Assembly (NCBI GenBank): GCA_965368975.1
Contig: CBDUPA010000006.1
Location: forward strand, 1-64,000
DNA: 64,000 nucleotides
Source: an uncultured bacterium
Lineage (GTDB): Bacteria; Acidobacteriota; Thermoanaerobaculia; Multivoradales; JAHZIX01
Reading direction: 5' to 3'
The notes beneath the pieces were generated by a model. That model worked only from the letters and a program-made list of their open reading frames with translations, had not been told where the DNA came from and searched no databases. Every line of letters begins with the position of its first letter. Within the stretch, counting starts at the first letter, position 1. The position numbers were made by a program, and so were the translations under genes. Positions 2-48,279 of this stretch are shown here, in pieces.

Positions 2-3000
2 TGGACGGCGCCGGACGAGCTGGATTGCCTGGCGTCGCGCGGGATCGAACGTCTCGATGTCGAGACCTTGCCGCTCCTGGCCGCGGATGCGAATCTGGGC
101 GCGCTGGCCGCGAAACTGCCCCGTGTCGACGATCGCAACCTGGTCTACGTCGTCTTCACCTCCGGCTCGACCGGCCGGCCGAAAGGCGTCGAGGCGGTGC
201 ACCGGGCGGTGGTGCGGTTGGTGCGCGACGGCGACTTTGCCGACTTCGGACCGGAAACCGTGCTGGTGCAGGTGGCGCCGGTCGCCTTCGACGCCTCGAC
301 GCTCGAGATCTGGGCGACGCTGGCCGGTGGTGGGCGACTGGTGATTCCGCCGCGGGCGGGCATCTCCCTGTCCGAGCTGGCTCGCTGGATCCGGCGTCAC
401 GGCGCGACGGTGCAGTGGATCACGACCGGATTTTTCCACCAGATGGTCGATGCCGAGGTCGAGACGCTGCGGCGCCTGGGACAGATTCTCACCGGCGGTG
501 AAGTGCTGTCGCCGGGGCACGTAGGACGCTTGCTGAGCACCGGCTTCAGCGGGCACGTCACCAATTTCTACGGACCGACCGAGAACACTACCTTCACCAC
601 CTTCTACCCGCTGCTCCACGCCGACTTCGACATGGTGGCGAGTCCGATCGGCAAGCCGATTGCACGCACCTATGTGGTTGTCCTGGCGTCTCCCTGGGAG
701 CAGGCTGCTGAGGGCGAGCCCGGTGAATTGGCCTGCGGAGGGGACGGCCTGGCGCGGGACTACCTGGGACGGCCAGCGCGCACGGCGGCCAGTTTCGTGC
801 CGGATCCGTGGTCGAACACGCCAGGTGCGCGCCTCTACCGCAGCGGCGACCTGGTACGCCAGCGCGGCGACGGTGTGGTCGAGTTCCTGGGGCGCCTCGA
901 CGCGCAGGTCAAGGTGCGGGGCTTCCGCATCGAGCCGGGGGAGGTCGAGGCGGCGCTGCGGGCACTGCCGGCGGTGGGCGATGCGGTCGTCGTGGCCCGC
1001 CGCGACGGCACCGAGGCGGGCGGTAGTTCGAGTCTGGTGGGGTACATCGTCCCGGCAGCGGAGCTGCTGGCAAGGCCCACCATCCCGGCAGCGGAGCTGC
1101 CGGAGCGAGATGAACCGCAGGGCCAGGGTAACGAGGTCGAGCCGAGCACAGCCGACGAAACCGCAGATGTTCCCGCAGATCACCTCGACCACTGGCAGCG
1201 CCTGTTCGACGACATCTACGCCGCCGACCGCGACCTCGAAGACGTTGCCTTCGATCGCATCGGCTGGGACAGCAACTACACTGGCCAGCCGATCCCGCAG
1301 GAAGAGATGCAAGAGTGGCTGCGTGGCACCCTCGACGACCTGCGGCAGCTGCAGCCGAAGCGGGTGCTGGAGGTCGGCTGCGGTACCGGCATGGTGCTCT
1401 TCGGGGTCGCTGGCGTCTGTGATCGCTACGTCGGCATTGACCTGTCACCGCAGGTCGTCGCGGACCTGCAACAGCGCGTGGCGGCGGCACGGGCGCGTGC
1501 CGAGGAGAGCGGCGGTCGACTGGCCGAGGTCGAGTTGCACTGCAGCGCGGCACACGACGCCTCTGCCTGGCGCCACCAGCGCTTCGACACCACGGTGCTC
1601 AATTCGGTGCTGCAGTACTTCCCGGACATGGACTACTTGGCCGGCGTGGTGCGCAACATGATCGCGGTCACCGAGGACGGCGGTGCGGTCTACGTCGGCG
1701 ACGTGCGCAGCTTCCCTTTGCTGGAGCTGTGCAACACTTCGCTGGCGCTCTTCCGAGCCGCGGACGACCTGCCGCTGGCGGCGCTGCAGCACGAGGTGCG
1801 CCGGCGCACGTTGCAGGAGAACGAGCTGACCGTCGACCCAGCTTTCTTCTTCGAGCTGGCGCGCCGTGATCCGCGCATCACGGCTGTGGAGATCCACGTA
1901 CCGCAGGGCCGGGCACACAATGAACTGACCCGGTTCCGGTATTCGGCGGTGCTGCGCGTCGGTCCCGCATCAGGTTCGTCTGGCGGTCGTGACACCGCTG
2001 CCTGCCGTGATATTCCCTGGCAAGATGTTGCTTGGCGAGACGGCCGTGGCTTGACCCACCTCGACGCGCTGCGTCGCGAACTCGATGCGGCCCGGCGCCA
2101 GGGGGTGTTGACCATGGCCTTGCGCGGTCTGCCCAACGCCCGGCTGGCCCCGGACGTCGCGGCGCGCCAGCGGCTCGACGAACTCCTGGCGGCTGGCGAG
2201 CACGAGGAGCTGCGGCTGGCGCGGGCCGGCGAGTTGCGGCGGGCGGTGGCCCACGTTCCCGGGCTCGAACCACTGGACGTGCGCGAACTCGGGGCCGAAC
2301 TCGGATTTCAAGTGTTCCTCGGCTGGAGCCAGCAGGGAGACGAAGGCCGCTTCGAAGCCCTGTTCGACGCCACTGGCACGGCCACCACGTGCCCGCCGCT
2401 GCCCGAGGCCTGGGAGCCGGAAGCCCTGGCATCGGAATCTGCTTCGTCGAGCTCGAGCCGGCTTGGCTGGGGTCGCTTCGGCAATGATGCCCACCGCGGC
2501 GAGCGCATTCGAGAACTGGTGCCCGAGCTGCGCAGCGCGCTGGCCGGGCGCCTGCCCGAGCACATGGTGCCGTCTAGCCTGGTGCTGCTCGACGAGCTGC
2601 CGCTCAAGTCCAACGGCAAGGTGGACCCCGCCCGCCTGCCGCAGCCCGAGGTCGTGACGCGCGCCGCACAGCTGACGCCGCCGCGCACCGCGCTGGAGCA
2701 GGCACTGGCCGAGCTGTGGTGCGAGCTACTGCACCTGGATGAGGTCGGCATCCACGAACGTTTCGCTGACCTCGGCGGCCACTCGCTGCTGGCCACCCGC
2801 CTGCTCGCCCGCATTCGCGAGTTGACCGGCGTCGCGTTGCCACTCGGCCGCCTCTTCGAGCTGCCGACCATCGCGCAGTTGGCATCAGAGATCGAGACCG
2901 AGGGCGGCGGTCTGTCGGTGTCGCCCGAGAGTGTCCCATTGCAGGCTGCGGGACCCGAGCAGCCGGCACCGCTCAGCTTCGGCCAGGAGCAGCTGTGGTT

Positions 3001-6000
3001 CCTGGCGCGCCTGGTGCCGGACAACCCCTTCTACAACGTACCGCTGGTGCTCGAGCTGACCGGCAGGCTCGAGGTGGCGGCCTTGCAGACGGCGCTCGGT
3101 GAGCTGCTGCAGCGTCACGAGGTGCTGCGCGCCGAGATCCGCGTCGATGAAAGCGGGGTGTCCGAGCAGCAGGCCGTCGCGGTGCCGAGGGTACTGTTGC
3201 CGGTGGTCGACTTGGGATGGCTGAGGGCTGCCAGGGCTGAAGTCGGGGCGAGCATCATCGCCGGGGAACTCGACCGCTTGCAACAGCGTGAGGCCCTGCG
3301 GCCCCTGCGCCTGACGCCGCCACCCTTGGTGCGCGCGACGCTGGTGCGCTGGGGCGAGCACGCCCGCCTATGGCTGACCGTGCATCACATCGCCATCGAC
3401 GGCCGTTCCCTGCACGTTCTGCTCGACGACCTGGCCGCTCTCTACCGGGCCGCCTGTGCCGGCCGTGACGCGGGGCTGACGCCGCTGCCGGTGCAGTACG
3501 GAGACTTCGCACGCTGGCAGCGGGGAGCCTTCGTCGCCAACCAAGCCGATCGCCTGGAAAAGGATCTGGACGCCTGGCGCCAGTACCTGCAGGCTGCACC
3601 CGAGGTAATCGAACTGCCGGTGGATCATCCCGTGCCGGCGGTCCCTACGTTCCGGGCACGCCTGCGGCAGGTGCAGCTGTCGCGACGTCAGCAGGCACGA
3701 CTGCAGGAACTCGCTGACGCCGCCGACGCCAGCCTGTACATGGCGTTGTTCGCCGTCACCGCCGCCTGGCTGCGTCGCCATGGTGCGGCGCGCGATCTGG
3801 TGCTGGGTACGCCGCTGGGCGGTCGCCCGCATCCGCGGCTGGAGCCGTTGATCGGCTTCTTCGTCCAATCGCTGCCGGTGCGCCTGGACGCCCCCCTCGA
3901 TCTCGCCTTCGAGCGCTTGCTCGAGCGCGTGCGGCGCGCGCTGGTCGACACCTGGGCCCTGCCCGAGGTGCCCTTCGAGAAGCTGGTCGAAGAGCTGCAG
4001 CCGGCACGACAACCTGGGCAGAATCCCTTGCTGCAAGCGGTCGTTGGCTTCAACCAGCCGCTGCCGGCGCCGGATCTCAGCCCTGAGGTCGGCAAGAGCT
4101 TGACGAGCGCGCCCGCCTATCTCGAGCTGCGCACCACCCGCTTCGACCTCGAAGTGCACTTCGAACCGCACAGCACCGACGGCATCACTGGCTTGATGGT
4201 CGCCAGTGTGGACCGCTTTGAGGCTGCGACGGTCGAACGCCTGGCGATGCACTGGCAGCGCTTGATGACGGCCATCCTGGAGCGTCCGGATGCGCCGCTC
4301 TGGCGGCTCGACATGCTCGCCGCTGCCGAACGCCAGCAACTGCTGCACAGCTGGGCGGGAGGTCCCGAGGTCACTCGGGACGAGCGACTGGAAATGTCGT
4401 TGGAGGCGCTGTTCCTGCGCGCCGCCGATCGCGTCCCGGACGCGGTGGCACTGACCCAGGGCCGCCGCCATCACAGCTACGCTGGAGTGCGGGCGATGGC
4501 GGGGCGCATCGCTGATGGGCTGCGACGAAGCGGCGTCCAGGAGGGCGTAGCCGCGGCGGAGGCGCGCATTGTCGTGTCGCTGCCGCGTTCGCCGGAGCAG
4601 ATCGCGGCCGTGCTGGGCGTGCTGCTGGTGGGCGGTGTCTACGTGCCGCTCGATCCAGACGACCCTGAGCCGCGTCGACGTCGGCTGCTGGAAGAGTTGC
4701 GGCCGGCCGCCGTACTCGACGCCGAATCCTGTCCTCCAGCCCTGGTCGCGGGTCGTTCGCCGCACCTGACTGCCGTCGAGACGGGGCGCGAGACTGGGCA
4801 CGGGATCTGGCGCGAGACTGCACGGCCCGGTGGCGATCGGCTGGCCTACGTCCTTTTCACCTCTGGCTCCTCGGGCGTGCCCAAGGGCGTCGCGGTGCCG
4901 CACCGTGCCGTTGCCCGCCTGGTTCTGGCGGCCGACTACGTCGACCTGGGGCCCGAGCAGGTGATGTTCCAAGCCGCACCCCTGAGCTTCGACGCCTCGA
5001 CCTTCGAACTTTGGGGCGCGCTCGTCTGGGGTGGCCGCCTGGCCATGATGCCGCCGGGCCCACCGTCGCTGCAGACGCTCGATCGGCAGCTGCAACGCCA
5101 AGCGGTGAGTGTGACCTTCCTGACCACGACGCTGTTCAATCAGCTGGTGGATCTGGGCCTGCCCCTGGAGGCGGGAGCGGGCCTGGACCGTGTGGCTCAG
5201 GTGCTCACCGGCGGCGAGGCGATGTCGGCCACCCATGCTCGGCGGCTGCTGCAACGAGGTTTCCGCGGCCGGCTGAGCAACGTCTACGGCCCGACCGAGA
5301 ACACCACCTTCTCGACCCTGGAGGCGATCACGCCCGGCTCGCCGCAAGCCGCCATCAGTATCGGCCGGTCGATACCCCATACGCTGGTGCGCGTTCTCGG
5401 TCCCCGCGGAGAACTCGTTTCCGTCGGCGTCGGTGGGCAGCTGGCGCTGGCGGGTGCCGGCCTGGCCCGGGGCTATCTGGACCGTCCCGCGCGCACCGCC
5501 GCCAGCTTCGTGCCGGACGCCTTCGCCGCACATGCCGCTGCCGGCTCGCGCTCGTACTTGACCGGTGACTTGGTGCGCTGGCTGGCCGATGGTCGTCTCG
5601 ATTTTCTCGGCCGCTTCGACCACCAGGTCAAGGTGCGGGGTTTCCGTATCGAGCCCGAAGAAGTCGAAGCAGCGTTGACGGCGCATCCGGAGGTGCTGGC
5701 GGCGGCGGCCCTGGCGGTCAGCGGTGCGACCGCGGGGGACCGCAGCTTGGTGGCCTGTATCGTGACGGCCGGTGCTGACACCGCCGTACCGACACTGCGT
5801 CGTTGGCTGAGCAGCCGCCTACCGTCGCATCTGGTGCCGTCGCGCCTCTTGACGCTACCCAGCCTGCCGCTCAACGCCACCGGCAAGCTGGATCGCCGCG
5901 CCCTCGAACTCGTCGTGCGGGAGCGGCAGGTGCAGGAACCGCTCGCACAAGGAGCAAGCACCGCCGGACCGGTACCACCGCGCACGCCAATGGAAGAGCT

Positions 6001-9000
6001 GGTGGCGGGTGTGTGGCGCGAGCTGCTGGGTAGCACCGCCGCCACGGACGTCCACGCCTCCTTCTTCGACCTCGGTGGCCACTCGCTGCTGGTGACGCAG
6101 GCGATCACGCGTCTGCTGCGTCTCACTGGTGTCGAGCTGCCTCTGGCCGAGGTCTTTGCGCACCCGACCGTCGCTGAGCTGGCACGGGCGGTGGAGCAGC
6201 GGCTGGCGTCCGGGGTCGATCCGGAGGCCGAGACCTCGGTGCCACCGCTGGTGTCTCTCTCGGCCTCGGAGCGCGCCAGCGACGAAACCCTCACCGCACC
6301 GCTGTCCTTCGCGCAACGTCGGCTCTGGTTCGTCGGCCAGCTCGTGCCCAACAGCCCGATGTACAACGTGCCCCAGGTGCTCGACCTGGAGAGCCAACAC
6401 GGCGCCCTCGATCCGGAGCTCCTGCGTCGACTGTACTGGGGTTTGCGCCTGCTGCACGCCCGCCACGATGCCTTGCGGTGCCGTGTCGTGGCTTCCGAAA
6501 GTGAGCCCTACCAGCTCGTACCGCCTGCCGGTTCCTGGAGTCCGACCAGCGTAGATCTACGCGGCCTGCCCGCCTCGGTCGCAGAGGTCGAGGCCGTCCG
6601 CCTGCGTCGGCGCGAAGCGCAGCGACCCTTCCTCGACGATGCGTTCCACGGCGACGCGTCGCCCTGGCGTGCCGTGCTGGTGTTGCAAGATCCTCGGCGT
6701 TGCCAGCTACTCCTGACCCTGCACCACATCGCTGCCGACGGCTGGTCGGTCGATGTCTTGCTACGGGAACTCGGCCAGTTGTGCCGATCTGGAGTGCCTT
6801 TCGCCAAGCCTAGTACCGCACCTGACGCTGCACCTACCGGCGCCTTGGCACCGCTGCCGCTGCGCTATGCCGACTATGCACGGTGGCAGCGCAGCATCTG
6901 GAGCCGCGGCATCCTCGACGCGCACCTCGCTTGGTGGCGCGACCGGCTGCAGGATCTGCCATCGCTGCTGGCCCTGCCCACGGACCGTCCAAGACCGGCA
7001 CGGCCCAGCTTTCGCGGTGCGCACTACCAGGCACGGTTGACGCCAGCCCAGGTCGAGGGTCTGGAGGCCTTCGGTCGAGCGCACGGGGCCACGCCTTTCA
7101 TGGTGCTCGTGTCTGCCTTCCAGGCACTGCTGTGGCGGCTCACCGGTCGGCGCGACATCGTGCTCGGCACACCGATCGCCGGCCGCGATCACCTGGAGCT
7201 GGAGGGGCTCGTCGGCTGTTTCGTCAACACCTTGGTGCTGCGCAGCGAGGTGATGCCACAGCTCACCGTCGAGCGATTGCTGGAGGCGACGCGTGCCACC
7301 TGTTTGCAGGCCTATGCCCACGGCGCCGTGCCCTTCGAGCTGCTGGTAGAAGCGTTGCAGCCCGAGCGGCGTCTCAGCCACCAACCGCTGGTGCAGGTGG
7401 CGCTCGGCGTGCAGCCCGAAACGCCGGCCCCGCAGTTGCCGGGAGTGCGGGTGCGCCGTGCCTGGAGCGGGCTCGACACCGCGCGCCTGGACCTGACTCT
7501 GTCCATCGATCTCTCGGCCGGCGACGGTGCGCGCCTTTGGTGGGAGTACAGCACCGAACTCTTCGACGCCACGACCCTGATGCGCTGGGATCGTAGTCTG
7601 CGTCGCGTGTTGGCCAGCTGGGTGCCCACCAAACCCACGCGCCATTCCACGCACAAGCCCCCGCACGCGAATGACGTGCCAGCCGACTCTGTAGGGACCT
7701 CAACTGCCGATCCAGCAGCCCTGCTGCTGCGAGACCTGGATTGGCTCGATCGCAGTGAGCAGCACCAGCTGTTGCAGGCCTGGGCTTGCCTGCCGGCTGG
7801 CACCGCCTACCAGTCGCGGCCGGTGTTGCAGGCGGTAGCTTCGGTGGTCGCGGCACAGCCGCACGCGACGGCCCTGGTTTGGAGCTCTGCAGGCGGTCGG
7901 CCGGAACACCATCTCAGCTACGGTGAACTCGATCGCCGTTCCCGCCTGCTGGCCGCCACGCTGGCGACCACGCTGCGCCGCCGTGCTTCCGGACCGGGGA
8001 CGCCGGTCGGCTTGTGTACCGGTCGAGGCGGCGAGATGACCCTGGGAGCGCTGGCGATCCTGCGGGCCGGCGGCGCCTTCGTGCCGCTCGACCCCGCGCA
8101 CCCACCGCGCCGCTTGATCTGGCAGCTACAGGATGCCGGGGCACCGCTGGCCGTGGTCTCCGCCGCTGGTGAGCACACCCTGGGCGGCGGCTTTCCGTGC
8201 TTGCGAGTGGATCGAGTGCCGGCGACGGACAGCAGTGAGAGGCTTGACGTGGTGCCGCCTCACGCATGGCAACTCGCCTACGTTCTCTACACTTCGGGCT
8301 CGACCGGCCGCCCGAAGGGCTCCGAGGCGACGCACGGCAACCTGGCGCACCTGGTGGCCATGGCGCACAGCTTCCACACTCCGGCCGCCGGTGAGCGCAC
8401 CGCGCAGACCGTCGGCCCGGCGTTCGATGTCACCTTGCTCGAAGTGTGGCCGCAGCTGGTACGCGGCGCCACGTTGTGCGTACCGCCGCCGGACATCGTG
8501 ACCTCGCCGCCGGTTCTCTTGCCGTGGATGCGCAGGCAGCGAATCCTCGGAGCCTACATGGCGACACCGGTCGCCGAAGCGCTGGCGGCGGAGCCCGGCG
8601 CCGCGGAGCTGCCGCTGCGCTATCTGTGCACGGGGGGGTCGCGCCTGCACGCTATCCCTCGAAGCGACCTTCCGTGGCGCCTGCTGAACATCTACGGGCT
8701 GAGCGAGACGACGGTGGTGCTGACGCGCGAATGGGTACGGCTCGGCGCGGCCGAGCAGCCGGCGATCGGGCGGCCGGTACCGGGTATCGACCTCCACGTG
8801 CTGGATCCCGACTTCGAACTCACGCCGCCCGGAGTGCCGGGGCAGCTGTGCGCCGGTGGCACTGGCCTGTCGCGCGGCTATCTCGGCCGGCCTGCGCTGA
8901 CGGCCGACAAGTTCCGTCCGCATCCCTTCGCCGGCCGCATTGCCTCGACGGAACCGCTGGCCGGTGAGCGAGGGTCCGGCGCTCGTCTCTGCCTGACCGG

Positions 9001-12000
9001 CGACCTCGTGCGCTGGCGCGCGGATGGGCGTCTCGACTTCCTTTCGCGCATTGACCACCAGGTCAAGCTGCGCGGTCTGCGCATCGAGCTGGGCGAGATC
9101 GAAGCCGTGCTGCGGCGCCAGGACACGGTCGCGGAAGCGGTGGTGATCCTGCAGGAGGACAGTCTGCAGCGCTTGCTCGGGTATGTCGTTCCTGCCGCGG
9201 GGGCTACCGAAGGCGCGTCGCTCGACATGGGCGCCTTGCGCAAGGCTCTGGCGCAGGAAGTCCCCGATTACATGGTGCCGGCAGTGCTGCAGGTGCTGCC
9301 GGAGCTACCGCTCAACGCCAATGGCAAGCTCGACATCGCCCGCTTGCCGCGGCCGGAAGTGGACGCCACCGAGGCGGCGCGTGCGCCGGTCACCCCGATG
9401 GAACGACTGCTCGCCGGCCTCTGGCGCGAGGTTCTCAGCGACGCCGCGCCGGCTGAGCTGAGTCGCGACCAGGACTTCTTCGCCCTCGGTGGCCACTCGT
9501 TGCTGGCCGCACGCCTGACCTCCCGTCTGCGCCAGCGCTTGCACGTCGAGGTACCGGTACGCCTGCTGTTCGAGGCACCGACACTGGCTGAGCAGGCCGA
9601 GTACATCGAGCAGCTACGCGCCGGTCCGCGGCCGGTGCCGTCGCTGAGTGCCGAGCTGGTCGCTACGGAGTCGGGCGCTCTCGAGTCGACTGGAAGGGAC
9701 AGCGCACCGCTGTCCCTGGGGCAAGAGCGCTTGTGGCTGCTGCACCGCATGCAGCCCTCATCGCCGGTCTACAACATGCCCATGACTCTCGATCTCCCGG
9801 CGGACGTACGGCCCGCCGCCGTGACGCGGGCCGTCGGTGAGCTGATCCACCGTCATGCCGTGCTGCGAACGACCTACGAAGAAGCCGCTGATGGCCAGCC
9901 ACGGCAGCGCATCGCGCCCCCCATGCCGAGGGTCGACGGGTCGCGGGTCGCTCTACCCTGGATCGATCTGGGCCGGCTCGGCCGGGCTGCCGGCTCTGAG
10001 GCCGAGCGCCTCGGGCGACAGGAAGCGCGCCTGCCGTTCGACCTGCAGTGTGGTCCGCTGGCTCGCTTCATCCTGCTACGCCTGCCGCCGGGCGAAACCT
10101 ACGGCGCGCACCTGCTGCTCAACCTGCACCACAGCATCGCGGACGGCTGGTCCCTGGAGCTGCTACCGCGTGAGCTGGCGAACGCCTACCGTCGGGCTTG
10201 TGGTGCACGCGCCCAGCCGCTGGCACCCCTACCGATCAGCTATGCCGACTTCGCGCGCTGGCAGCGCCAGCGCCTGGAGAACGATCTGCAAGCCCAGTTG
10301 AGCTGGTGGTGTGACGCGCTGCAAGGGGTGCCGCAGGTTCTGGAGCTGCCGATCGATCACCCACGGCCACCGGTGCAGAGCTTGCAGGGTGCCCAACACG
10401 AAGTGCACCTGGACGCGCATGTCCTCGACGCTCTCGATGGAATCGGGCGTCAGCACGGCTGCAGTCGCTTCATGACCCTTCTGGCGCTCTTCCAGGCGCT
10501 GCTCTTCCGCTACACCGGTGCTTCGGACATCGTCGTCGGCTCGCCGGTCGCGGCGCGTACGCGGCCCGAACTCGAGCCGCTGCTCGGTTTCTTCGTCAAC
10601 AACCTGGTGCTGCGTGCGCGCTGCCGCGGCGGCTTGCCGTTCGAGCAGCTACTCGACCAGGTTCGCGACACCTGCCTCGACGCGCTCGCGCACCAGGACG
10701 TCCCCTTCGAGCGCCTGGTGGAAGCACTGCAGCCCGAACGCAATCCGTCCCTGACGCCGCTGTTCCAGGTCGTCTTCGTGGTCCAGGACGCGGTGCAAGA
10801 AGGGCTGGAGTGGCCGCTGGCAGCTACCGCCGGGCCTGCTGCCCACCGTGCGCGCCTGCGCGAGCGTGACCTTGGCAGCGCCAAGTTCGATCTCACGCTG
10901 ACGCTGCCCCGCGCTGCTGGGGCGACGGTCGGGTCGCTCGAATACGACACCGCCCTCCTTGACCCGGTCACCATCCACCGCTGGGCCGGGCATCTGCGCA
11001 CCCTGCTGGCTGGCGCGGCGGCGAGACCGTCGACGCCCCTGGATCGACTGCCCTTGCTCACCAGCGCCGAGCGGCACCAGTTGCACCACGAGTGGAGCGC
11101 ACCGGAGAAGACCGTACCGGCGCGCGAGGCACGGCGCACGCACGCCTTCGAGCCGGTGCACTTGCGCTTCCATGCCCACGCCGCCGCAACGCCGGGCCGA
11201 CCCGCCGTCGTCGATCCGGCCGGCAGCTGGAGCTATGGCGACCTCGACCGTCTGGCCCTCCAGCTGGCGCGGCAGCTACGCCGTCTGGGCGTCGGACCGG
11301 AAGTGCGCGTCGCGCTTTGCTTACCGCGCGGCCGACGCTCCGTCCTCGGCATGCTGGCCAGCCTCTATGCCGGCGGTGGCTTCCTCAGCCTGGACCCCGA
11401 GCACCCCGCGGAGCGCCTGCGCTTCCAGCTGCAAGATACTGCTGCTCGCGACGGTGCCGTCCGTGACGATACTGTCCGTGTCCTGCTCGTCGAGCCGCGG
11501 CTGGCGGTGGCCGAGGCACTGACTGGGGATCTGCCGTCGTCGATCACAGTGCTGCGTCTCGAAGGGGAGCCAGTCTTGTCTTCTACTACTGGGGCTGCAG
11601 GTACTGGGGCTGGCGATTGGCCGCGCATCCTGGCCGCACGGGAGACAGCTGAGCCTGGGCTGCCGGACGTTCCCGCGGCCGGCCAGCTCGCCTATGCCTG
11701 CTACACCTCGGGCTCGACCGGCCACCCGAAGGGCGTGGTCTTGACGCACGCCGGCCTGGCCGCGCAGTTGGACAACTTCCAGGGATCGTATGGCCCGAGG
11801 GCCGGCGAGCGCATGGGGCATGCAGCTGGCCTGGCCTTCGACGTCACCGTCTTCGAGGTCTGGGTGGCCCTGGCCGCGGGGGCCACCGTCTGCGTGCCGC
11901 CCGAGAACGTGCGCGTCAGTGCGCCGGGCATGCTCCGGTGGATGACCGAGCAACGTCTCGACGTCTGCGTCCTCACGACCGCGCTGGCTGAGCTGGCCCT

Positions 12001-13171
12001 GGCTGAGCTGGCCCTGGCTGAGTTGGTCGCGGCTGAGCTCGAAGCGTCGCGCTCCACCTCGTCTCGCAGTGAGCCTGACCTCCTCGGTAGCCTGCGACTC
12101 CTGTACACCGGTGGGGACCGTTTGCGCCGGCGCCCAACGTCGCCCCAGCCGTTCGAGTTTCTCAACCTCTATGGTCCGACCGAGAACACCGTCATCGCCA
12201 CGGTGGGCCCCGTCGCCTCAGCTGAAGCAGCTCCTGACGCAGAGGCGCCCCTGCTCGGCCGTGCCGTGGCCAGCACCTGCGTTCGCCTGCTGGACGCGGC
12301 GCAACGAGCGGTGCCGACCGGAGTGCCCGGCGAAGCGCTGCTCGGTGGTGTCACGCTCGCTCGCGGCTACCTCGGACGTCCCGCCCTTACGGCTGCTGCC
12401 TTCGTGCCCGACCCCTACAGCCCGGTGCCCGGTGCCCGTCTCTACCGCACGGGGGACCTGATGCGTTGGAAGAGCGACGGTCAGCTCGACTTCCTCGGTC
12501 GCGTTGACCACCAAGTGCAGCTGCGTGGCTATCGCGTCGAGCTGGGTGAGATCGAGACCATCCTAGGCCGGCATCCTCAGGTGCGCGATGCCGCCGTCTT
12601 GCTGCGCTCCAACAACGGGGAATCCTACCTGGCGGCGTACCTGGTGCCGATGAACGGCACAACGCTGTCGGTCGAAGAGCTGCGCGTCTACCTGGCGCGC
12701 AGCCTGCCCGCTTTCATGGTGCCGGCCCACTACCGCAGTCTCGACGCCCTGCCCCTGAACCGCAGCGGCAAGCTCGACCGTGCCCGCCTCGCCCAGTTGA
12801 CCGTCGACGTCACTCGCGCTGAGCATGTGGCTGCCCGCACCGAGCTGGAGCGGATGCTCACCGACCTGTGGCGGGAAGTCCTGGGGTTGGAGCGCGTCGG
12901 CGTCTACGACAATTTCTTCGACCTCGGAGGGCACTCGTTGCTGCTGGCGCGCCTGCATTCGCGGCTGCAAACCACCCTCGGCCGGCAAGTCGAGATGATG
13001 GACCTCTTCCGCTTCACCACCATCCACCAGCTCGCCCGCCATCTCGACGCCGGTGGCGAGGCCACTGAGGCGACCCGAGAAGCTCAAGCTTCCACCCGCG
13101 ACCGTGCCGCCGGACGTCGCGCCGCGGCGAGAGCGGCGGCGTCGAGGCGCGGGTTGCCGCGCCACACCTGA
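2..13171 (+). CDS. NRPS1, 5'-truncated: A[N-methyltransferase]-T-C-A-T-C-A-T-C-A-T with a basic C-terminal docking tail and no TE
   Basis: The frame is open from position 2 (WTAPDELDCL...), so the real start lies upstream of the window. It has four A domains (A3 motifs FTSGSTGRPKG, FTSGSSGVPKG, YTSGSTGRPKG, YTSGSTGHPKG) and an MT (VLEVGCGTG, LNSVLQYFP; about 1190-2500) inserted between A8 and A9 of the first. There are four GGHS carrier sites (about 2774, 6074, 9488, 12927) and three LCL-type C domains (HHIAIDG, HHIAADG, HHSIADG). Confidence 0.97.
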   Translation, partial: WTAPDELDCLASRGIERLDVETLPLLAADANLGALAAKLPRVDDRNLVYVVFTSGSTGRPKGVEAVHRAVVRLVRDGDFADFGPETVLVQVAPVAFDASTLEIWATLAGGGRLVIPPRAGISLSELARWIRRHGATVQWITTGFFHQMVDAEVETLRRLGQILTGGEVLSPGHVGRLLSTGFSGHVTNFYGPTENTTFTTFYPLLHADFDMVASPIGKPIARTYVVVLASPWEQAAEGEPGELACGGDGLARDYLGRPARTAASFVPDPWSNTPGARLYRSGDLVRQRGDGVVEFLGRLDAQVKVRGFRIEPGEVEAALRALPAVGDAVVVARRDGTEAGGSSSLVGYIVPAAELLARPTIPAAELPERDEPQGQGNEVEPSTADETADVPADHLDHWQRLFDDIYAADRDLEDVAFDRIGWDSNYTGQPIPQEEMQEWLRGTLDDLRQLQPKRVLEVGCGTGMVLFGVAGVCDRYVGIDLSPQVVADLQQRVAAARARAEESGGRLAEVELHCSAAHDASAWRHQRFDTTVLNSVLQYFPDMDYLAGVVRNMIAVTEDGGAVYVGDVRSFPLLELCNTSLALFRAADDLPLAALQHEVRRRTLQENELTVDPAFFFELARRDPRITAVEIHVPQGRAHNELTRFRYSAVLRVGPASGSSGGRDTAACRDIPWQDVAWRDGRGLTHLDALRRELDAARRQGVLTMALRGLPNARLAPDVAARQRLDELLAAGEHEELRLARAGELRRAVAHVPGLEPLDVRELGAELGFQVFLGWSQQGDEGRFEALFDATGTATTCPPLPEAWEPEALASESASSSSSRLGWGRFGNDAHRGERIRELVPELRSALAGRLPEHMVPSSLVLLDELPLKSNGKVDPARLPQPEVVTRAAQLTPPRTALEQALAELWCELLHLDEVGIHERFADLGGHSLLATRLLARIRELTGVALPLGRLFELPTIAQLASEIETEGGGLSVSPESVPLQAAGPEQPAPLSFGQEQLWFLARLVPDNPFYNVPLVLELTGRLEVAALQTALGELLQRHEVLRAEIRVDESGVSEQQAVAVPRVLLPVVDLGWLRAARAEVGASIIAGELDRLQQREALRPLRLTPPPLVRATLVRWGEHARLWLTVHHIAIDGRSLHVLLDDLAALYRAACAGRDAGLTPLPVQYGDFARWQRGAFVANQADRLEKDLDAWRQYLQAAPEVIELPVDHPVPAVPTFRARLRQVQLSRRQQARLQELADAADASLYMALFAVTAAWLRRHGAARDLVLGTPLGGRPHPRLEPLIGFFVQSLPVRLDAPLDLAFERLLERVRRALVDTWALPEVPFEKLVEELQPARQPGQNPLLQAVVGFNQPLPAPDLSPEVGKSLTSAPAYLELRTTRFDLEVHFEPHSTDGITGLMVASVDRFEAATVERLAMHWQRLMTAILERPDAPLWRLDMLAAAERQQLLHSWAGGPEVTRDERLEMSLEALFLRAADRVPDAVALTQGRRHHSYAGVRAMAGRIADGLRRSGVQEGVAAAEARIVVSLPRSPEQIAAVLGVLLVGGVYVPLDPDDPEPRRRRLLEELRPAAVLDAESCPPALVAGRSPHLTAVETGRETGHGIWRETARPGGDRLAYVLFTSGSSGVPKGVAVPHRAVARLVLAADYVDLGPEQVMFQAAPLSFDASTFELWGALVWGGRLAMMPPGPPSLQTLDRQLQRQAVSVTFLTTTLFNQLVDLGLPLEAGAGLDRVAQVLTGGEAMSATHARRLLQRGFRGRLSNVYGPTENTTFSTLEAITPGSPQAAISIGRSIPHTLVRVLGPRGELVSVGVGGQLALAGAGLARGYLDRPARTAASFVPDAFAAHAAAGSRSYLTGDLVRWLADGRLDFLGRFDHQVKVRGFRIEPEEVEAALTAHPEVLAAAALAVSGATAGDRSLVACIVTAGADTAVPTLRRWLSSRLPSHLVPSRLLTLPSLPLNATGKLDRRALELVVRERQVQEPLAQGASTAGPVPPRTPMEELVAGVWRELLGSTAATDVHASFFDLGGHSLLVTQAITRLLRLTGVELPLAEVFAHPTVAELARAVEQRLASGVDPEAETSVPPLVSLSASERASDETLTAPLSFAQRRLWFVGQLVPNSPMYNVPQVLDLESQHGALDPELLRRLYWGLRLLHARHDALRCRVVASESEPYQLVPPAGSWSPTSVDLRGLPASVAEVEAVRLRRREAQRPFLDDAFHGDASPWRAVLVLQDPRRCQLLLTLHHIAADGWSVDVLLRELGQLCRSGVPFAKPSTAPDAAPTGALAPLPLRYADYARWQRSIWSRGILDAHLAWWRDRLQDLPSLLALPTDRPRPARPSFRGAHYQARLTPAQVEGLEAFGRAHGATPFMVLVSAFQALLWRLTGRRDIVLGTPIAGRDHLELEGLVGCFVNTLVLRSEVMPQLTVERLLEATRATCLQAYAHGAVPFELLVEALQPERRLSHQPLVQVALGVQPETPAPQLPGVRVRRAWSGLDTARLDLTLSIDLSAGDGARLWWEYSTELFDATTLMRWDRSLRRVLASWVPTKPTRHSTHKPPHANDVPADSVGTSTADPAALLLRDLDWLDRSEQHQLLQAWACLPAGTAYQSRPVLQAVASVVAAQPHATALVWSSAGGRPEHHLSYGELDRRSRLLAATLATTLRRRASGPGTPVGLCTGRGGEMTLGALAILRAGGAFVPLDPAHPPRRLIWQLQDAGAPLAVVSAAGEHTLGGGFPCLRVDRVPATDSSERLDVVPPHAWQLAYVLYTSGSTGRPKGSEATHGNLAHLVAMAHSFHTPAAGERTAQTVGPAFDVTLLEVWPQLVRGATLCVPPPDIVTSPPVLLPWMRRQRILGAYMATPVAEALAAEPGAAELPLRYLCTGGSRLHAIPRSDLPWRLLNIYGLSETTVVLTREWVRLGAAEQPAIGRPVPGIDLHVLDPDFELTPPGVPGQLCAGGTGLSRGYLGRPALTADKFRPHPFAGRIASTEPLAGERGSGARLCLTGDLVRWRADGRLDFLSRIDHQVKLRGLRIELGEIEAVLRRQDTVAEAVVILQEDSLQRLLGYVVPAAGATEGASLDMGALRKALAQEVPDYMVPAVLQVLPELPLNANGKLDIARLPRPEVDATEAARAPVTPMERLLAGLWREVLSDAAPAELSRDQDFFALGGHSLLAARLTSRLRQRLHVEVPVRLLFEAPTLAEQAEYIEQLRAGPRPVPSLSAELVATESGALESTGRDSAPLSLGQERLWLLHRMQPSSPVYNMPMTLDLPADVRPAAVTRAVGELIHRHAVLRTTYEEAADGQPRQRIAPPMPRVDGSRVALPWIDLGRLGRAAGSEAERLGRQEARLPFDLQCGPLARFILLRLPPGETYGAHLLLNLHHSIADGWSLELLPRELANAYRRACGARAQPLAPLPISYADFARWQRQRLENDLQAQLSWWCDALQGVPQVLELPIDHPRPPVQSLQGAQHEVHLDAHVLDALDGIGRQHGCSRFMTLLALFQALLFRYTGASDIVVGSPVAARTRPELEPLLGFFVNNLVLRARCRGGLPFEQLLDQVRDTCLDALAHQDVPFERLVEALQPERNPSLTPLFQVVFVVQDAVQEGLEWPLAATAGPAAHRARLRERDLGSAKFDLTLTLPRAAGATVGSLEYDTALLDPVTIHRWAGHLRTLLAGAAARPSTPLDRLPLLTSAERHQLHHEWSAPEKTVPAREARRTHAFEPVHLRFHAHAAATPGRPAVVDPAGSWSYGDLDRLALQLARQLRRLGVGPEVRVALCLPRGRRSVLGMLASLYAGGGFLSLDPEHPAERLRFQLQDTAARDGAVRDDTVRVLLVEPRLAVAEALTGDLPSSITVLRLEGEPVLSSTTGAAGTGAGDWPRILAARETAEPGLPDVPAAGQLAYACYTSGSTGHPKGVVLTHAGLAAQLDNFQGSYGPRAGERMGHAAGLAFDVTVFEVWVALAAGATVCVPPENVRVSAPGMLRWMTEQRLDVCVLTTALAELALAELALAELVAAELEASRSTSSRSEPDLLGSLRLLYTGGDRLRRRPTSPQPFEFLNLYGPTENTVIATVGPVASAEAAPDAEAPLLGRAVASTCVRLLDAAQRAVPTGVPGEALLGGVTLARGYLGRPALTAAAFVPDPYSPVPGARLYRTGDLMRWKSDGQLDFLGRVDHQVQLRGYRVELGEIETILGRHPQVRDAAVLLRSNNGESYLAAYLVPMNGTTLSVEELRVYLARSLPAFMVPAHYRSLDALPLNRSGKLDRARLAQLTVDVTRAEHVAARTELERMLTDLWREVLGLERVGVYDNFFDLGGHSLLLARLHSRLQTTLGRQVEMMDLFRFTTIHQLARHLDAGGEATEATREAQASTRDRAAGRRAAARAAASRRGLPRHT
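11984..12040 (+). repeat. In-frame 15-bp tandem repeat (LAELA, about 4 units) inside NRPS1 A4
   Basis: ctggctgagctggcc x2, then ctggctgagttggtc and gcggctgagctc. Confidence 0.9.
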
Positions 13172-16849: not shown

Positions 16850-17605
16850 ATGACATTCCATCGAGTCTGGATCCTCGCGTTGTCTGTGCTGCTGCCGACA
16901 GCTGCTCTGGCACAACCAGGCTGGACCGGTGCTGGCTTGGGCTTCTCGTCCGACATCGTGGCCAGACTGGCGAAGGTCGAGCGCCTGCTGGAGAAAGACA
17001 AGTGGGACAAGGCCCAGCGAGAGATCGACGAGCAGGTCGAGAAAGCGCTGGAGCGAGGGGCCTACAATGCCGTCTCGGGCAGTGATGTGGCTGTCTTGAT
17101 GACCCTACAGGCCTTGATCCAAGTGCAGCGTGGCGAGCGCGAGGACGGCTTGTGGACCTGGTACATCGCGCAGAACCTCGACCGCGGCGTACTGCGCATT
17201 CGCCGCTTCGCCGTGTACGGTGAGCCCTGGGAGTTCCTCTCGGCGAATCCCTTGCGCCAGTGGGATGGCTCGGTGCGTGGTCGGCCCATTCGCACGCAGC
17301 AGGAGTTGCGCTCGGATTGGGATGTCGAATTCACGCCACCGGTGGTCAAGGAAGAGAAAGATGCCGAGTTCTGGCGACCGTTTCAGCGCCTGGACCGCGA
17401 GCTGCGCTTCTATGCTCAGGTGATCGTCGACCGCGAGGGTAAGACGGATCAACCCGTGGTGCTCGACGGACTCGAATACCCGCTGCTGGTGTACTTCGGG
17501 GTGATAGGGCTCCGCGACTGGCGCTACGAGCCCGGCACCGTCGATGGTGAGCCGGCGGAAATGTTCGAGGAAGTCGAGCTGCGGCTGCGCCAGCGCCGCT
17601 GGTAG
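16850..17605 (+). CDS. Exported protein with TonB C-terminal-like domain
   Basis: GGAGG RBS and signal peptide. The C-terminus PPVVK...VIVDREGK...LRDWRYEPGTVDGEP resembles TonB_C. Confidence 0.65.
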   Translation: MTFHRVWILALSVLLPTAALAQPGWTGAGLGFSSDIVARLAKVERLLEKDKWDKAQREIDEQVEKALERGAYNAVSGSDVAVLMTLQALIQVQRGEREDGLWTWYIAQNLDRGVLRIRRFAVYGEPWEFLSANPLRQWDGSVRGRPIRTQQELRSDWDVEFTPPVVKEEKDAEFWRPFQRLDRELRFYAQVIVDREGKTDQPVVLDGLEYPLLVYFGVIGLRDWRYEPGTVDGEPAEMFEEVELRLRQRRW

Positions 17606-17607
17606 CG

Positions 17608-19143: not shown

Positions 19144-19190
19144 AGCTAAGTCAGTCTATGCCGTTCCTGACGGTGTTGCAAGGAGCGTAG

Positions 19191-21145: not shown

Positions 21146-24100
21146 ATGCAAGATCTCGCTGAACGTCTCGCGTCCTTGCCGCCGGAGCACCGTGCGCTGT
21201 TGGAGCAGCGCTTGCGGTCCAAGGGCATTGCTGTGCCGATTGCCGAGCCGACACTGCAGCGACTGGGCCTGTCGCGGGCCAAGGCGTCCATGGACCAGGA
21301 ACGGCTGTGGTTCATCGATCGGCTGGTCGGGGGGCACCCTGCGTACAACGTCAGCACCTCGTTTCTGATCGACGCCACCCAGCATGCATCGGCAGCGGGT
21401 TTGAACGCCGGAGCTTTGGTGCGAGCGGTACGGGAGATGGTGCGCCGACACGAGGCGTTGCGCACACGCTTCGAGCTCGACGGCGACGAACTGCTGCAAG
21501 TCGTCGAGCCGGACATGGCCCTGGTCGTGCCGCTGGTGGACCTGTCGCGCCTGCCCGCCGAGCGGGCCCATCGCCTGTCACGGGCGCTCGGTTTGCATCG
21601 TGCCCGACAGCTCTTCGACCTCGGATGTACACCGTTGCTGCGCTGCACTCTGGTGCGTGTCACCAGGGATTGCTACTACCTGCCGGTCACCATGCACCAC
21701 ACGGTGACGGATCACATCTCGAGCCACATCGTCGCGCACGAGTTGCCGGCGCTCTATGCCGCCTACGTCGATGGGCGTCCCAGTCCCCTGCCGGAGCCGG
21801 AGTTCCAGTACATCGACTACTCGGTGTGGCAGCGCGAGCTGTGGCAGGGCGAGACGCTGGAGACGACGCTGGCCTACTGGCGCGAGCAGCTGGCGGGAAC
21901 GTCGGGCGTGCTCGACCTGCCGACCGATCGACCACGGCCGGCTGTGCAGACGGTCAACGGGGGCCGCTGGGACGTGCGTATCTCGTCGGCACTGACGGAG
22001 GCGTTCCGTGACATCGGCCGGCGCGTCAACGTGACGCCGTTCGTCGGTGTGCTGGCACTGCAGAAGCTGCTGCTCAGCCGGCACTGTGGCCAGCGTGACG
22101 TTATCGTCGCCTCGCCCGGCGCCAACCGTGACCGCGTCGAGCTGGAGCAGATTTTCGGCTTCTTCCTCAACATGTTGATCTTCCGCTCGGTGCTCGACCC
22201 GGAGGTCTCGTTCCTCAGCCTGCTGGAGAGCGAGCGCGCTGTCACCATGGGAGCGATGGCGCATCAGGAGCTGCCCTTCGCGCGCCTGGTCGAGGAGCTG
22301 GTACCGGAGCGCGACACGAGCCGCAACGCCCTCTTCCAAGTGTCACTGATCTATCTCGAAGGCGCCGAGATGCAGAGCACCGAGGGCCTGCAGTGGAGCA
22401 GCGAGGGTCTGGGCAACAACACCGCCCGCTTCGATTTCACTCTTGCCTTGTGGAACTACGCCAGCGGCTTCGAGGGCGTGCTGGAGTACAACTCGGATCT
22501 CTTCGATGCCACCACCATGGGCCGTTGGGTCGGCCACTTCGAGTGCCTGATGCGCGCCGTGGTCGAGAATCCCGAGGCGCCGATCGGCCAGTTGCAATTG
22601 TGGACGTTGGCCGAGCGTCAGCAGGCCCTGGTCGAGTGGCAGGCTCAGCCTCGAGGGCAGACGAGCGCAGGCAGTCCCGGGTTGCTCGATCTGCTGGCCC
22701 GTGGCCGCGATGCGCGTCCAGATGCGGCAGCGCTGGTCTTCGGCCAGCGGGTGCTGAGTCACGGAGAACTGTGGCGGCGCGTCGAGGCTCTGGCGGAAGT
22801 CCTGCGCCGTCGAGGTGTCGGGCCGGACGTGCGCGTTGGCCTGTGCTGCAGCCGCTCGGAAAGAATGGTGGTGGCTTTGCTAGCGGTGCTGCGGGCCGGT
22901 GGCGCCTACGTGCCGCTCGATCCGTCGCACCCTCCGCGCCGCCTGGCCTACGTGCTCGAAGACGTGCAAGCCTCTCTACTGCTGGCGGACACTCGAGGCC
23001 GCACCGTGCTCGGCGACCTGCTACCCGCGGCCTTGCCGGTGCTGGGACTGGGTGGCTGGGACGCGCAAGTGGCTTCCGTCGAGCCGTCGAGCGGAGCGGT
23101 ACCGTCGGGCAGAGCAGTACCGGCAAACGGAGCAGTACCCTCGAGCCAGCTCGCCTACGTCATCTACACCTCCGGCTCGACCGGCCGGCCCAAGGGCGTG
23201 CAGATCCCGCGTGGTGCGATGGTCAACTTCCTCATCTCGATGGCGCGTCGGCCGGGTCTCGCCCCCGACGACGTATTCGCTGCCGTCACCACCCTGGCTT
23301 TCGACATCGCGGTGCTCGAACTCCTGCTGCCGCTGCTGCAAGGAGCCACTGTCCACGTGCTATCGCCGGTCGTCTCCGCGGATCCCAGGCGTCTGGCCCG
23401 TGCGCTGGAGCTCAGCGCCGCGACGGTGATGCAGGCGACGCCCGCGACCTGGCGTCTGCTGGTCGAGAGCGGTCAACTGGACGGCCGGCTGCACGGGCAG
23501 CTGCGCGTGCTGTGCGGTGGCGAGGCCCTGCCGGATGACCTGGCTCGACGGCTGCGGCTGCGTGCGGCCGAGGTGTGGAACCTCTTCGGTCCCACCGAGA
23601 CCACCGTGTGGTCGGCGGTCGAACCGTTGCAGGGTGGGCTACAGGAGCCAGGTGAGGCACGCGTGACGCTCGGCCGGCCGATCGATGGCACCCGCATCCA
23701 CCTGCTCGACCCACGCCGCCAGCCGGTGCCGATCGGCGTGACCGGTGAGCTGTATATTGGCGGTGCCGGCCTGGCCCGCAGCTACCATGGCCGTGCGGCG
23801 CTCACCGCGGAAGTGTTCACTCCGGACCCGTTCTCGGCAGCCGGTGCACGTCTCTACCGCACCGGCGACCTGGCACGCCAGCTGGCCGATGGGCGGTTGC
23901 ACTTCCTAGGTCGCCGCGACCACCAGGTGAAGGTGCGTGGGTTCCGCATCGAACTGGGCGAGATCGAGGCGTGCTTGCGGCAGCTGCCGGAGGTGCGCGA
24001 GGCGGTGGTGTTGGTCGTCGGCCAGGGTCGTGGAGACCAGCGCCTGACGGCGTTCCTGGTCCCTGCGCACGCTCCTGCACGGCACGCAGGTGTCGAGGAA

Positions 24101-39100: not shown

Positions 39101-40833
39101 CCGCGCACGCCAGACCTGGTGGTGGCGATCCTCGGCGTGCTGGCCAGCGGTGCCGCCTACCTGCCGCTGGACCCGGCCTATCCCGAGGAGCGGCTGCGCT
39201 TCATGCAGCAAGACGCTGCCACGCAGCTGGTGCTCCATTCTCTGCAGGATGTCGACTTCGGGGCGGATGTCGCCTTCGAGGCTGAGTGCGCGCCGGGGGC
39301 CCGCGACTTCGAGCCGTGGAATGTGGCCGACCCCGACCACCCCGCGTACGTCATCTATACCTCGGGCTCCACCGGCCGGCCCAAAGGCGTCGTTATCCCG
39401 CGTTCTGCAACGGCTGCGTTGCTGGCGTGGACCCGCACGGCCTTCCCGTCAGAGCACCTGCGCGGCATGCTGGCGCTCACCTCCGTCAGCTTCGACATCT
39501 CCGTCATCGAGCTGCTGGCCCCGCTGAGCGCTGGTGGCACCGTGCTCTTGGTCGACAACGCGCTGCAGCGCGCGGCCCTGCGGGCGCCCGAGGAAGTGAC
39601 GCTGGCCATCGTGGTGCCTTCGGTGATGAACGAATGGTTGACGGTCGGCGAGCTGCCGCCAGCCTTGCGCACGCTGGCGCTGGGGGGCGAGGCGCTGCCG
39701 GCGGCGCTGGTCGAACGGGTGCGCTCGCGCACGGATGCCGAGCTGTGGAATCTCTACGGACCGACCGAGGACACCACCTGCTCGACGGCGGTGCGCTTAC
39801 CTGCAAAGCCATCAGCCCGCGCACCATCGATCGGCCGCCCACTCGCCGGTGGTGGCGGAGACGTACGCCTGCTCGACGGTCGTCTACGGCCGGTGGCTGC
39901 GGGCGAGGTCGGAGAAGTCTGCCTGGGCGGGGCCGGCATTGCGCGCGGCTACCTGGGTCGCCCCGCTCTCACCGCTGAGCGCTTCGTGCCGGATCCGTTC
40001 CGTGCTCTCTTGGAGAGCAGGGCGCACGGGCGCCTCTACCGTACCGGTGACCTCGGTCGCTGGCGCGCCGACGGTGGAGTCGAGTTCCTCGGTCGCCGTG
40101 ATCACCAGGTCAAGCTGCGCGGCTTCCGCATCGAACTCGGTGAGATCGAGGCCGCCCTGCTCGAACACCCCGACGTGCTCGAGGCGGCAGCCCTGGTCGT
40201 CACGACCGGATCGGTGGCACGGCTGCTCGCCTGGGTGACGCCAGAGCCGTCCGTCGACAAGTTGGCCGTCGACAAGTTGTCCGTCGATCAGCTAGCCGCC
40301 GACAAGCTGTCCGCCGTGCACGACGAACTACGTCGACGCCTGCCCGCGCACCTGGTGCCAGAGCAGGTCGAAGCCCTACCTGCCTTGCCACGCACCGCCA
40401 GCGGCAAGCTCGACCGCCGTACCCTGGCGCTGCGAGCCGCCCAGCGCGCGCCGAGTCCGGAGACGCTGCGTGCCGGAGGCACCGCCAGCGACGACTTGGA
40501 GCGGCGCCTGGCCAGCGTCTGGGCCGACGTGCTCGAACTCGACGCCGCGGCCCTGGGCGTCGACGCCAACTTCTTCGAATTAGGTGGCAACTCCTTCCAG
40601 ATGGTGCGTCTGCAGGCACGCCTCCAGCAAGAGCTGAGCGTCGAAGTCGCGACGCTGCCGACGGGTGAACTGAGCCTGGTCGACCTGTTCCAGGCGCCGA
40701 CCATCCGCAGCCTGGCGGCGCGCCTGCGAGCGCCAGACTCGGGCAAGGCGGTGGAGAAGGGCGAGCGCCTGGCCGATCAGCGCAAACAAGCCCACGGCCG
40801 CCTGGCGCGCCTGTCGCAACGGAGGCGTGGCTC

Positions 40834-40837
<4 letters not shown>
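21146..40837 (+). CDS. NRPS2, five modules: C*-A-T-C-A[MT]-T-C-A[MT]-T-C-A-T-C-A-T
   Basis: 6563 aa with five A domains. N-MTs lie at about 27600-28850 (VLEIGCGTG, LNSVAQYFP) and 32200-33500 (VLEIGVGTG, LNSVVQYFP). Carrier sites are GGHS x4 (about 24443, 29132, 33773, 37199) and a terminal GGNS (about 40583). The first C has an atypical HHTVTDH motif. Confidence 0.97.
24107..24166 (+). repeat. In-frame 15-bp tandem repeat (PPPAE x4) in NRPS2 A1
   Basis: ccgcccccagccgag x2, ccgctcccagccgag, ccgccacacaccgag. Confidence 0.9.
26552..26593 (+). repeat. In-frame 21-bp duplication (VDAASLD x2) in NRPS2 A2
   Basis: gtcgatgcggccagcctggat / gttgatgcggccagcctggac. Confidence 0.88.
37688..37738 (+). 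repeat. In-frame 15-bp tandem repeat (DTSAT/DASAT/ETSAT) in NRPS2 C5
   Basis: gataccagtgctacc, gatgccagtgctacc, gagaccagtgctacc, gatgcc. Confidence 0.9.
40250..40315 (+). repeat. In-frame 15-bp tandem repeat (SVDKL/AVDKL/SVDQL/AADKL) in NRPS2 A5
   Basis: tccgtcgacaagttg, gccgtcgacaagttg, tccgtcgatcagcta, gccgccgacaagctg. Confidence 0.88.

Positions 40838-48279
<7,442 letters not shown>

Follow-up and report, generated by a model that had tools for sequence, protein, structure and literature searches.

Condensation domains with an Asp-His C3 motif at two junctions of an acidobacterial peptide synthetase line: probable LCL-type domains at joints resembling NRPS-PKS-NRPS joints without the PKS

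The 64-kb stretch of DNA considered here, called the window, is the start of contig C6 (CBDUPA010000006.1; window base 1 is contig base 1) in the 7.1-Mb, high-GC genome of an uncultured acidobacterium, and it encodes three non-ribosomal peptide synthetases (NRPSs), NRPS1, NRPS2 and NRPS3. The latter two begin with condensation (C) domains whose C3 active-site motif closes in Asp-His instead of Asp-Gly, referred to below as the DH domains or the DH pair. Both are probably, at a rough probability of 0.6, working LCL-type condensation domains at junctions from which polyketide synthase (PKS) genes have been lost, with the chain now passing directly from carrier (T) domain to C domain. Each junction resembles an NRPS-PKS-NRPS joint minus the PKS, because a T domain of the KS-feeding type meets a C domain of a lineage with PKS donors and the window contains no PKS. 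A KS profile found no KS among the long reading frames of the window, and the other window genes that were scanned fall in no PKS family.

Translation and motif scanning locate HHTVTDH in NRPS2 C1 and AHIFFDH in NRPS3 C1 where the preliminary description of this DNA had placed them (Table 1), together with SMDQERLW and SIDQDRLW, which bear out the S-x-D-Q-[ED]-R-L-W form that it gave for the C1 motif. The range that it singled out, 21290-22570, falls within the NRPS2 C1 domain. All core motifs are retained in the DH domains, catalytic His and Asp included; in C3, both domains have the second His and the Asp, and the first His is replaced by Ala in NRPS3 C1. Relative to the usual form, C3 Gly-Trp has become His-Ile/Val and C1 Ala has become Asp, and the Asn of the C5 motif F-V-N-T varies across the lineage to which the pair belongs; both C3 and C5 of the DH pair are non-canonical. 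The other eight C domains of the window, all internal, have HHxxxDG in seven cases (three in NRPS1, four in NRPS2) and HHILSDA in one (NRPS3 C2), in agreement with the earlier account, and share S-x-[AG]-Q as their C1 motif.

The xHxxxDH form is rare and does not reflect accidental matching. It occurs in two of the 229 C-like hits in the genome, namely NRPS2 C1 and NRPS3 C1, and in three of 1216 full C domains drawn from 262 further large NRPSs, a set that serves as a sample of C domains only, the database search having ranked proteins by summed multi-C-domain score and not by nearest single domain. Absence of the closing Gly is far more common: 228 of the 1216 external domains have another residue after the C3 Asp (A 117, R 25, E 20, L 18, D 18, F 14, H 3, and others), and several synthetases have DE or DR at all of their C domains. 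The Gly that closes HHxxxDG, which is His in both DH domains, is therefore a weak criterion for LCL membership. The C1 motif of LCL domains is S-x-A-Q-x-R-(L/M)-(W/Y)-x-L, a pattern with which the C1 motifs of the DH pair agree at every position except for the change of Ala to Asp. In a recent survey, the C3 motif is given simply as HHxxxD (PMC10212144).

Profile, fold and phylogeny all place the pair among condensing domains. NRPS2 C1 and NRPS3 C1 match PF00668 over its full length with 271 and 255 bits (cut-off 30.6), and the AlphaFold2 (AF2) model of NRPS2 C1 has a pLDDT of 94.9 and a pTM of 0.92. Its nearest solved neighbours by Foldseek and phmmer are the LCL domains Txo2, TycC5-6, Txo1 and DhbF, with phmmer E-values from 3e-74 (Txo2) to 6e-55 and Foldseek TM scores of 0.83-0.88, and the top Foldseek matches are C domains. 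In a tree of 454 C domains, with classes assigned from gene context and nearest solved structures rather than from curated LCL, DCL, dual and modAA references, the DH pair sits within the main body of C domains preceded by A-T. The large LCL-like group containing the pair leaves outside it both the domains with S-P-x-Q-x-G-type C1 motifs (starter, DCL or dual-like) and a lipoinitiation-like DF/DL group.

Plain condensation, with neither epimerisation nor dehydration, is accordingly the activity that can be expected of both domains with considerable confidence. The preliminary description had raised both kinds of extra chemistry and had called HHxxxDH typical of dual epimerisation/condensation (E/C) domains. 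That generalisation has a documented basis in Pseudomonas lipopeptide synthetases, for whose dual E/C domains the motif is reported in PMC10531924, but it does not carry over to the DH pair. Were the His after the Asp to act as in the Pseudomonas domains, the junction C domains would invert the last donor residue and so compensate for the missing E domains; the window indeed has none, as had been noted, because each of its ten C-profile hits across the three NRPSs is followed by an A domain. Inversion is nevertheless very improbable. HH[I/L]xxxxGD, the second dual E/C motif, has no match in either DH domain, in line with the earlier account, in a scan that had no positive control since the motif also matched none of the 1419 full domains scanned. 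The C1 motif of the pair is LCL-like and not of the S-P-x-Q-x-G type, and NRPS3 C1 lacks the first His. The single sampled DH domain with a dual-like C1 motif falls in the DCL/dual-like clade, apart from the pair, at a tree distance of 4.49, versus 2.2-3.0 to seven C domains of the LCL-like mass. Members of the same lineage with Trp or Arg in place of His, moreover, take polyketide donors, and these offer no alpha-amino stereocentre for inversion.

Dehydration fares no better. The non-canonical C3 and C5 motifs could be taken to mark modAA-type C domains that convert the last donor residue to a dehydroamino acid, an activity hardly to be expected here: similarity to AmbB and McyA is weak (E-values of 1.4e-16 and 2.5e-19, versus 3e-74 for Txo2), and the donor A-domain codes differ from the known Ser and Thr codes. 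These codes were read from an alignment at positions taken from the GrsA numbering. The A1 domain of NRPS2 has the code DILQLGLVW, which we take to specify Gly; the acceptors of two DW-type domains are presumably Thr.

Both motif changes together characterise a small subgroup, distinct and well supported, to which the DH pair belongs. The two domains are each other's closest relatives (41-42% identity) and are sisters in four of four trees, with support of 0.958 and 0.946 and, in the two IQ-TREE -fast trees, SH-aLRT values of 92.5 and 97.8; each of these trees also joins them to HHxxxDW domains (0.986, 0.988, 96.2 and 75). In two trees (0.874, 88.8) the sister of the pair is a set of xHxxxDR domains from other genomes of the phylum. 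A third maximum-likelihood tree, with four more sequences, separated the DR set from the pair, with support of 0-64 at the nodes between, which leaves the wider grouping probable rather than secure. Eight of the nine lineage members in two trees stand at protein N-termini. A profile search covered 301 genomes of the phylum at the best five matches per genome; in 40 relatives there was no close orthologue of NRPS2 C1 or of the cluster (best 45% identity), and tblastn of parts of the relatives' clusters against this genome returned similar building blocks and no orthologous cluster. A literature search that was not exhaustive found no description of a subgroup with C1 Asp and C3 non-Gly.

Within this subgroup the two substitutions tend to occur together. 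A C1 motif of the form x-D-Q is found in 12 of 1460 full C domains (one of them from an unpublished genome, G189), and 11 of these 12 lack the C3 Gly, versus 265 of the remaining 1448, a count that overstates the evidence for a paired change because the 12 represent perhaps only five or six independent lineages. In the AF2 model, helix 1 has the C1 Asp in its first turn, and helix 4, just past the active-site loop, starts with the C3 His. The positions suggest that Asp50 and His190 might pack together, in the way that ordinary domains have the small Ala against Gly.

Where their upstream surroundings can be seen, other members of the lineage stand behind PKS modules. Of three DW domains in this genome, one (D204) begins its gene 55 nt 3' of a KS-AT-KR-ACP gene, one (D202) is fused C-terminally to such a module, and one (D190) has a KS-AT-KR-ACP gene 4.7 kb upstream. 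In four other genomes (G229, G211, G340 and G352) the order is an NRPS with a basic tail, a PKS with an acidic tail, a luciferase-like monooxygenase with its own docking helix, and an NRPS starting with a DR domain; G229 and G211 have in addition a haem-oxygenase-like gene between the monooxygenase and the DR-starting NRPS. A DW domain is fused after a PKS module in G011, and a PKS gene lies upstream in G021. An upstream PKS is thus visible for nine of the 12 lineage members; of the others, D136 has no synthase nearby and the remaining two are the DH pair, which lack an upstream KS-AT-KR-ACP module and have NRPS T domains as their upstream partners. Statine-like and alpha-ketoamide units are made by an established route in which a PKS extends the peptidyl chain and flavin mononucleotide-dependent alpha-oxidation follows (PMC13638107). 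Stand-alone luciferase-like monooxygenases carrying an N-terminal docking helix of the C-domain type were seen at four loci (L059, 3023-4318, in G229; L060, 6162-7406, on contig C2 of the present genome, G000; L074; and L078), which suggests that such enzymes dock on the tail of a PKS carrier to oxidise the bound chain.

The donor side of each junction is likewise suggestive of a missing PKS. Profiles built from 15 KS-feeding and 122 C-feeding T domains and scored by leave-one-out separate the two types: all 15 KS-feeders were positive (+4.5 to +27.4) and 121 of the 122 C-feeders negative (highest +1.6). In four other genomes, all four T domains ahead of PKS genes were positive (+9.3 to +21.6), and the internal carriers, namely three of three T domains that precede a C domain and one PKS ACP, were negative (-39.8 to -56.3). 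The last T domain of NRPS1 (T4) scores +17.4 and that of NRPS2 (T5) +13.1 as the difference of KS-type minus C-type profile, and the T domain before the TE of NRPS3 scores -34.5. KS-feeding carriers are recognisable by G-G-H-S-L-L-L and D-L-F-Q-[FY]-P-T, C-feeding carriers by G-G-H-S-L-L-A and L-F-E-A-P-T.

The C-terminal tails divide along similar lines. Among 26 adjacent synthase gene pairs in the genome, nine of ten acidic tails (charge of -5 or below) lead to a protein whose first domain is a C domain, and the eight tails with a charge of +5 or above precede a KS in four cases, a C-like domain in three (NRPS2 to NRPS3 among them) and an A domain in one. Acidic tails have the form L-L-x-E-I-E-x-L-S-D-E and lead to proteins with helix and C domain, and Arg-rich basic tails lead mostly to KS proteins with an acidic N-terminus. 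The terminal tail of NRPS1 is basic, as is that of NRPS2 (Table 1). On contig C5, a 585-residue free-standing C domain with HHIAIDA (open reading frame (ORF) O1200) follows an NRPS that ends near 222 kb in a KS-type T domain (+9.0) and a basic tail, another junction that departs from the rule.

The N-terminal docking helices, on the other hand, do not set the DH domains apart. The proposal that the Asp-His motif distinguishes a C-domain type used at inter-protein junctions survives as far as the subgroup is concerned; as a marker of junctions the motif fails, since among the 16 proteins of the genome with this helix and C1 motif, 11 have HHxxxDG, three DW and two DH. In other phyla (cyanobacteria, Pirellulaceae, Hydrogenedentota, Longimicrobiaceae), six of seven C domains behind the same helix are DG and one is DE. 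A search for related loci, which returned nine, caught mainly the docking-helix pattern ahead of canonical C domains and was used as a control. The helices of NRPS2 and NRPS3 are identical at 19 of 27 residues, versus about 41% for the C domains behind them, a difference compatible with a common partner or with recent duplication.

Under the favoured reading, PKS genes would once have stood at both junctions and have since been lost, and the chain would now be handed straight from NRPS1 to NRPS2 and from NRPS2 to NRPS3. The second His of the C3 motif would serve the formation of an ordinary amide bond. The His after the Asp would be one half of a paired change, with Asp replacing the Ala of C1 and His, Trp, Arg or Leu the Gly of C3, and the His variant may be specific to the new pairing of T and C domain. 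Several observations weigh against this reading, besides the way in which the tree classes were assigned, the conjectural nature of the Asp-His contact, the small number of independent lineages behind the paired change and the mobile position of the DR set. The codes of the two donor modules, DVFVYGLVI and DIIIAGLTC, match none known to us. Direct hand-over is not demonstrated, because the basic tails and a mildly basic docking helix form no obvious docking pair; that it takes place at the junctions has about an even chance. Nor is the lineage a general PKS-interface type, a possibility that was considered and rejected, as 15 of 18 C domains standing in cis behind a PKS module are canonical DG. 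By subtraction of coordinates, nine of the 14 such cases in this genome begin about 1030-1140 residues past the start of the KS, probably too short a distance to hold a KR, and the DW case begins at 1661.

A different account of the same junctions is that the PKS is still supplied, in trans. A stand-alone KS-AT-KR-ACP module would then extend the chain from the KS-type T domain by two carbons and deliver a statine-like beta-hydroxy-gamma-aminoacyl unit to the DH-type C domain, at one or both junctions. A candidate is present on contig C2 (locus L060; Table 1), where an orphan KS-AT-KR-ACP module with an acidic tail of the kind that precedes C-domain helices (L-L-x-E-I-E-x-L-S) is followed directly by a monooxygenase with a docking helix, and where the surrounding 15 kb or so yielded no A-domain gene. 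The T and C sides of each junction are both of PKS-pairing types, relatives have NRPS, PKS, monooxygenase and NRPS side by side, and the similarity of the NRPS2 and NRPS3 helices despite divergent domains fits one shared partner. The helix of the C2 monooxygenase is identical to that of NRPS2 and to that of NRPS3 at 17 of 27 residues and is the nearest in the genome to the NRPS2 helix after that of NRPS3. The margin in helix similarity is small, however (17 versus 15 of 27), and for NRPS3 a helix on contig C16 (18 of 27) is at least as close. The NRPS2 and NRPS3 genes overlap by 4 nt, as is usual in direct partners; a DW-type NRPS on contig C1, also without a PKS neighbour, offers an alternative client for the orphan module; and the stretch before the orphan KS lacks the clear acidity of KS N-termini preceded by basic tails. 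Supply in trans is on this evidence unlikely. Its more specific form, in which the one C2 module and its helix-bearing monooxygenase are recruited at both junctions with the DH-type C domains and KS-type T domains as docking and catalytic adaptors, is distinctly improbable, and no line in which two junctions share a single module is known to us.

Alternatively, the PKS may have been lost without repair, leaving mismatched T and C domains that pass the chain inefficiently and a cluster that is silent or yields truncated products. T type, tail and C type are mismatched at both junctions, and the lack of a close orthologue among the 40 relatives would fit such decay. The intact state of the line makes it a poor prospect: the three reading frames are uninterrupted across 13, 19.7 and 7.4 kb, the core motifs have kept their catalytic His and Asp, and the docking helices are better conserved than the C domains, which points to selection. 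Loss of the PKS followed by working, direct T-to-C transfer remains the favoured reading.

Several consequences follow for the prediction of products. A rule that HHxxxDH means dual E/C would mispredict D residues in the product of this line. The junctions can instead be read from two sides, since T-domain profiles split KS-feeders from C-feeders and one C lineage goes with KS-AT-KR-ACP donors. At two junctions of the window a PKS is expected and absent, which would mean either a natural excision of modules that left a coherent line or a module supplied in trans; the former, if true, is of interest for assembly-line engineering, and the latter, if one orphan module is shared, would insert two statine-like, possibly alpha-oxidised units in one peptide. 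Under either reading, the structural prediction for the product changes at two positions.

Table 1. Features of the window, and of contig C2 where so indicated, that bear on the two junctions.
Feature	Coordinates	Strand	Remarks
NRPS1	2..13171	+	A(MT)-T-C-A-T-C-A-T-C-A-T; 5' end truncated by contig end
NRPS1 last T domain and basic C-terminal tail	12821..13168	+	KS-feeding T type
Radical SAM/SPASM protein	13253-14467		NRPS1-NRPS2 interval
ORF without family	14489-15472		NRPS1-NRPS2 interval
Family 2 glycosyltransferase	15497-16810		NRPS1-NRPS2 interval
ORF without family	16850-17605		NRPS1-NRPS2 interval
FHA-GAF-HD regulator	17608-19143	-	NRPS1-NRPS2 interval
ORF of 612 residues, no Pfam match	19191-21029		Two stop-free frames, 18 nt apart; end lies 117 nt before NRPS2
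NRPS2, 6563 residues	21146..40837	+	C-A-T-C-A(MT)-T-C-A(MT)-T-C-A-T-C-A-T
NRPS2 N-terminal docking helix	21146..21226	+	L-x-P-E-x-R-x-L-L-E type
NRPS2 C1 domain	21242..22639	+	PF00668; AF2 model
NRPS2 C1 domain, C1 motif	21287-21310	+	SMDQERLW
NRPS2 C1 domain, C3 motif	21695-21715	+	HHTVTDH
NRPS2 last T domain (GGNSF) and basic tail	40478..40834	+	KS-feeding T type; last 30 residues charge +7
NRPS3, 2481 residues	40834..48279	+	C-A-T-C-A-T-TE; PF00975 listed
NRPS3 N-terminal docking helix	40834..40914	+	TTG start overlaps NRPS2 stop codon
NRPS3 C1 domain	40939..42303	+	PF00668
NRPS3 C1 domain, C1 motif	40993-41016	+	SIDQDRLW
NRPS3 C1 domain, C3 motif	41380-41400	+	AHIFFDH
Orphan KS-AT-KR-ACP module (G000 contig C2, locus L060)	365539-370557		Acidic tail
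Luciferase-like monooxygenase with N-terminal docking helix (G000 contig C2)	370561-371805		Directly after orphan module

The interval between NRPS1 and NRPS2 holds about 8 kb of other genes (13253-21029; Table 1). The radical SAM enzyme encoded there, in an NRPS cluster without E domains, might bear on stereochemistry or crosslinks. On the 3' side of NRPS3 (48417-54032) lie genes for an AIR-synthase-related protein, an ORF without family, a putative aminopeptidase (- strand) and a class I/II aminotransferase. The NRPS genes contain in-frame tandem repeats with units of 15-30 nt, 16 arrays in 48 kb, at sites including 46309-46380, 40245-40313, 24107-24167 and 11984-12039; one array, of 4.8 copies with a 15-nt unit, encodes L-H-T-A-P repeats within the final A domain of NRPS3. 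The genome as a whole is exceptionally rich in assembly lines, with 189 A-domain core motifs beside its 229 condensation-like hits in 7.1 Mb, and its longest single reading frames run to 14804 codons.

Among known systems, the DH pair has most in common with the solved LCL domains Txo2 (6P1J), Txo1 (6OYF), TycC5-6 (2JGP) and DhbF (5U89), with which it shares the fold, the set of core motifs, the second His and the Asp, and the A domain that follows; it differs from them in its C1 Asp, its C3 His-Ile/Val and its variable C5 Asn, and NRPS3 C1 also lacks the first His. The dual E/C domains of Pseudomonas, as described in PMC10531924, have the HHxxxDH form of C3 that NRPS2 C1 shares in full and that NRPS3 C1 shows as AHxxxDH, whereas the pair lacks HH[I/L]xxxxGD, has an LCL-like C1 motif and falls in another clade. 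CmodAA domains of the AmbB/AmbE and McyA type likewise combine a condensation fold with non-canonical active-site surroundings, but their similarity to the pair is distant and the donor modules of the pair are not Ser/Thr-like.

The closest parallel in assembly-line context is the statine-type PKS-NRPS interface behind KS-AT-KR-ACP modules, some of them accompanied by an FMN/luciferase-like monooxygenase, which follows the logic of pepstatin and myxoglucamide (PMC13638107); this is the position of the HHxxxDW and xHxxxDR domains, the nearest relatives of the DH pair. In the parts of that source concerned with this logic, the C domains are of other classes (interface, dual-like and DCL), and the C1-Asp subgroup does not appear. 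The DW and DR interface domains and the DH pair have in common the N-terminal docking helix and the C1 Asp; the window differs from such an interface in that it contains no PKS module, the donors are NRPS T domains, and the residue after the C3 Asp is His, not Trp or Arg.

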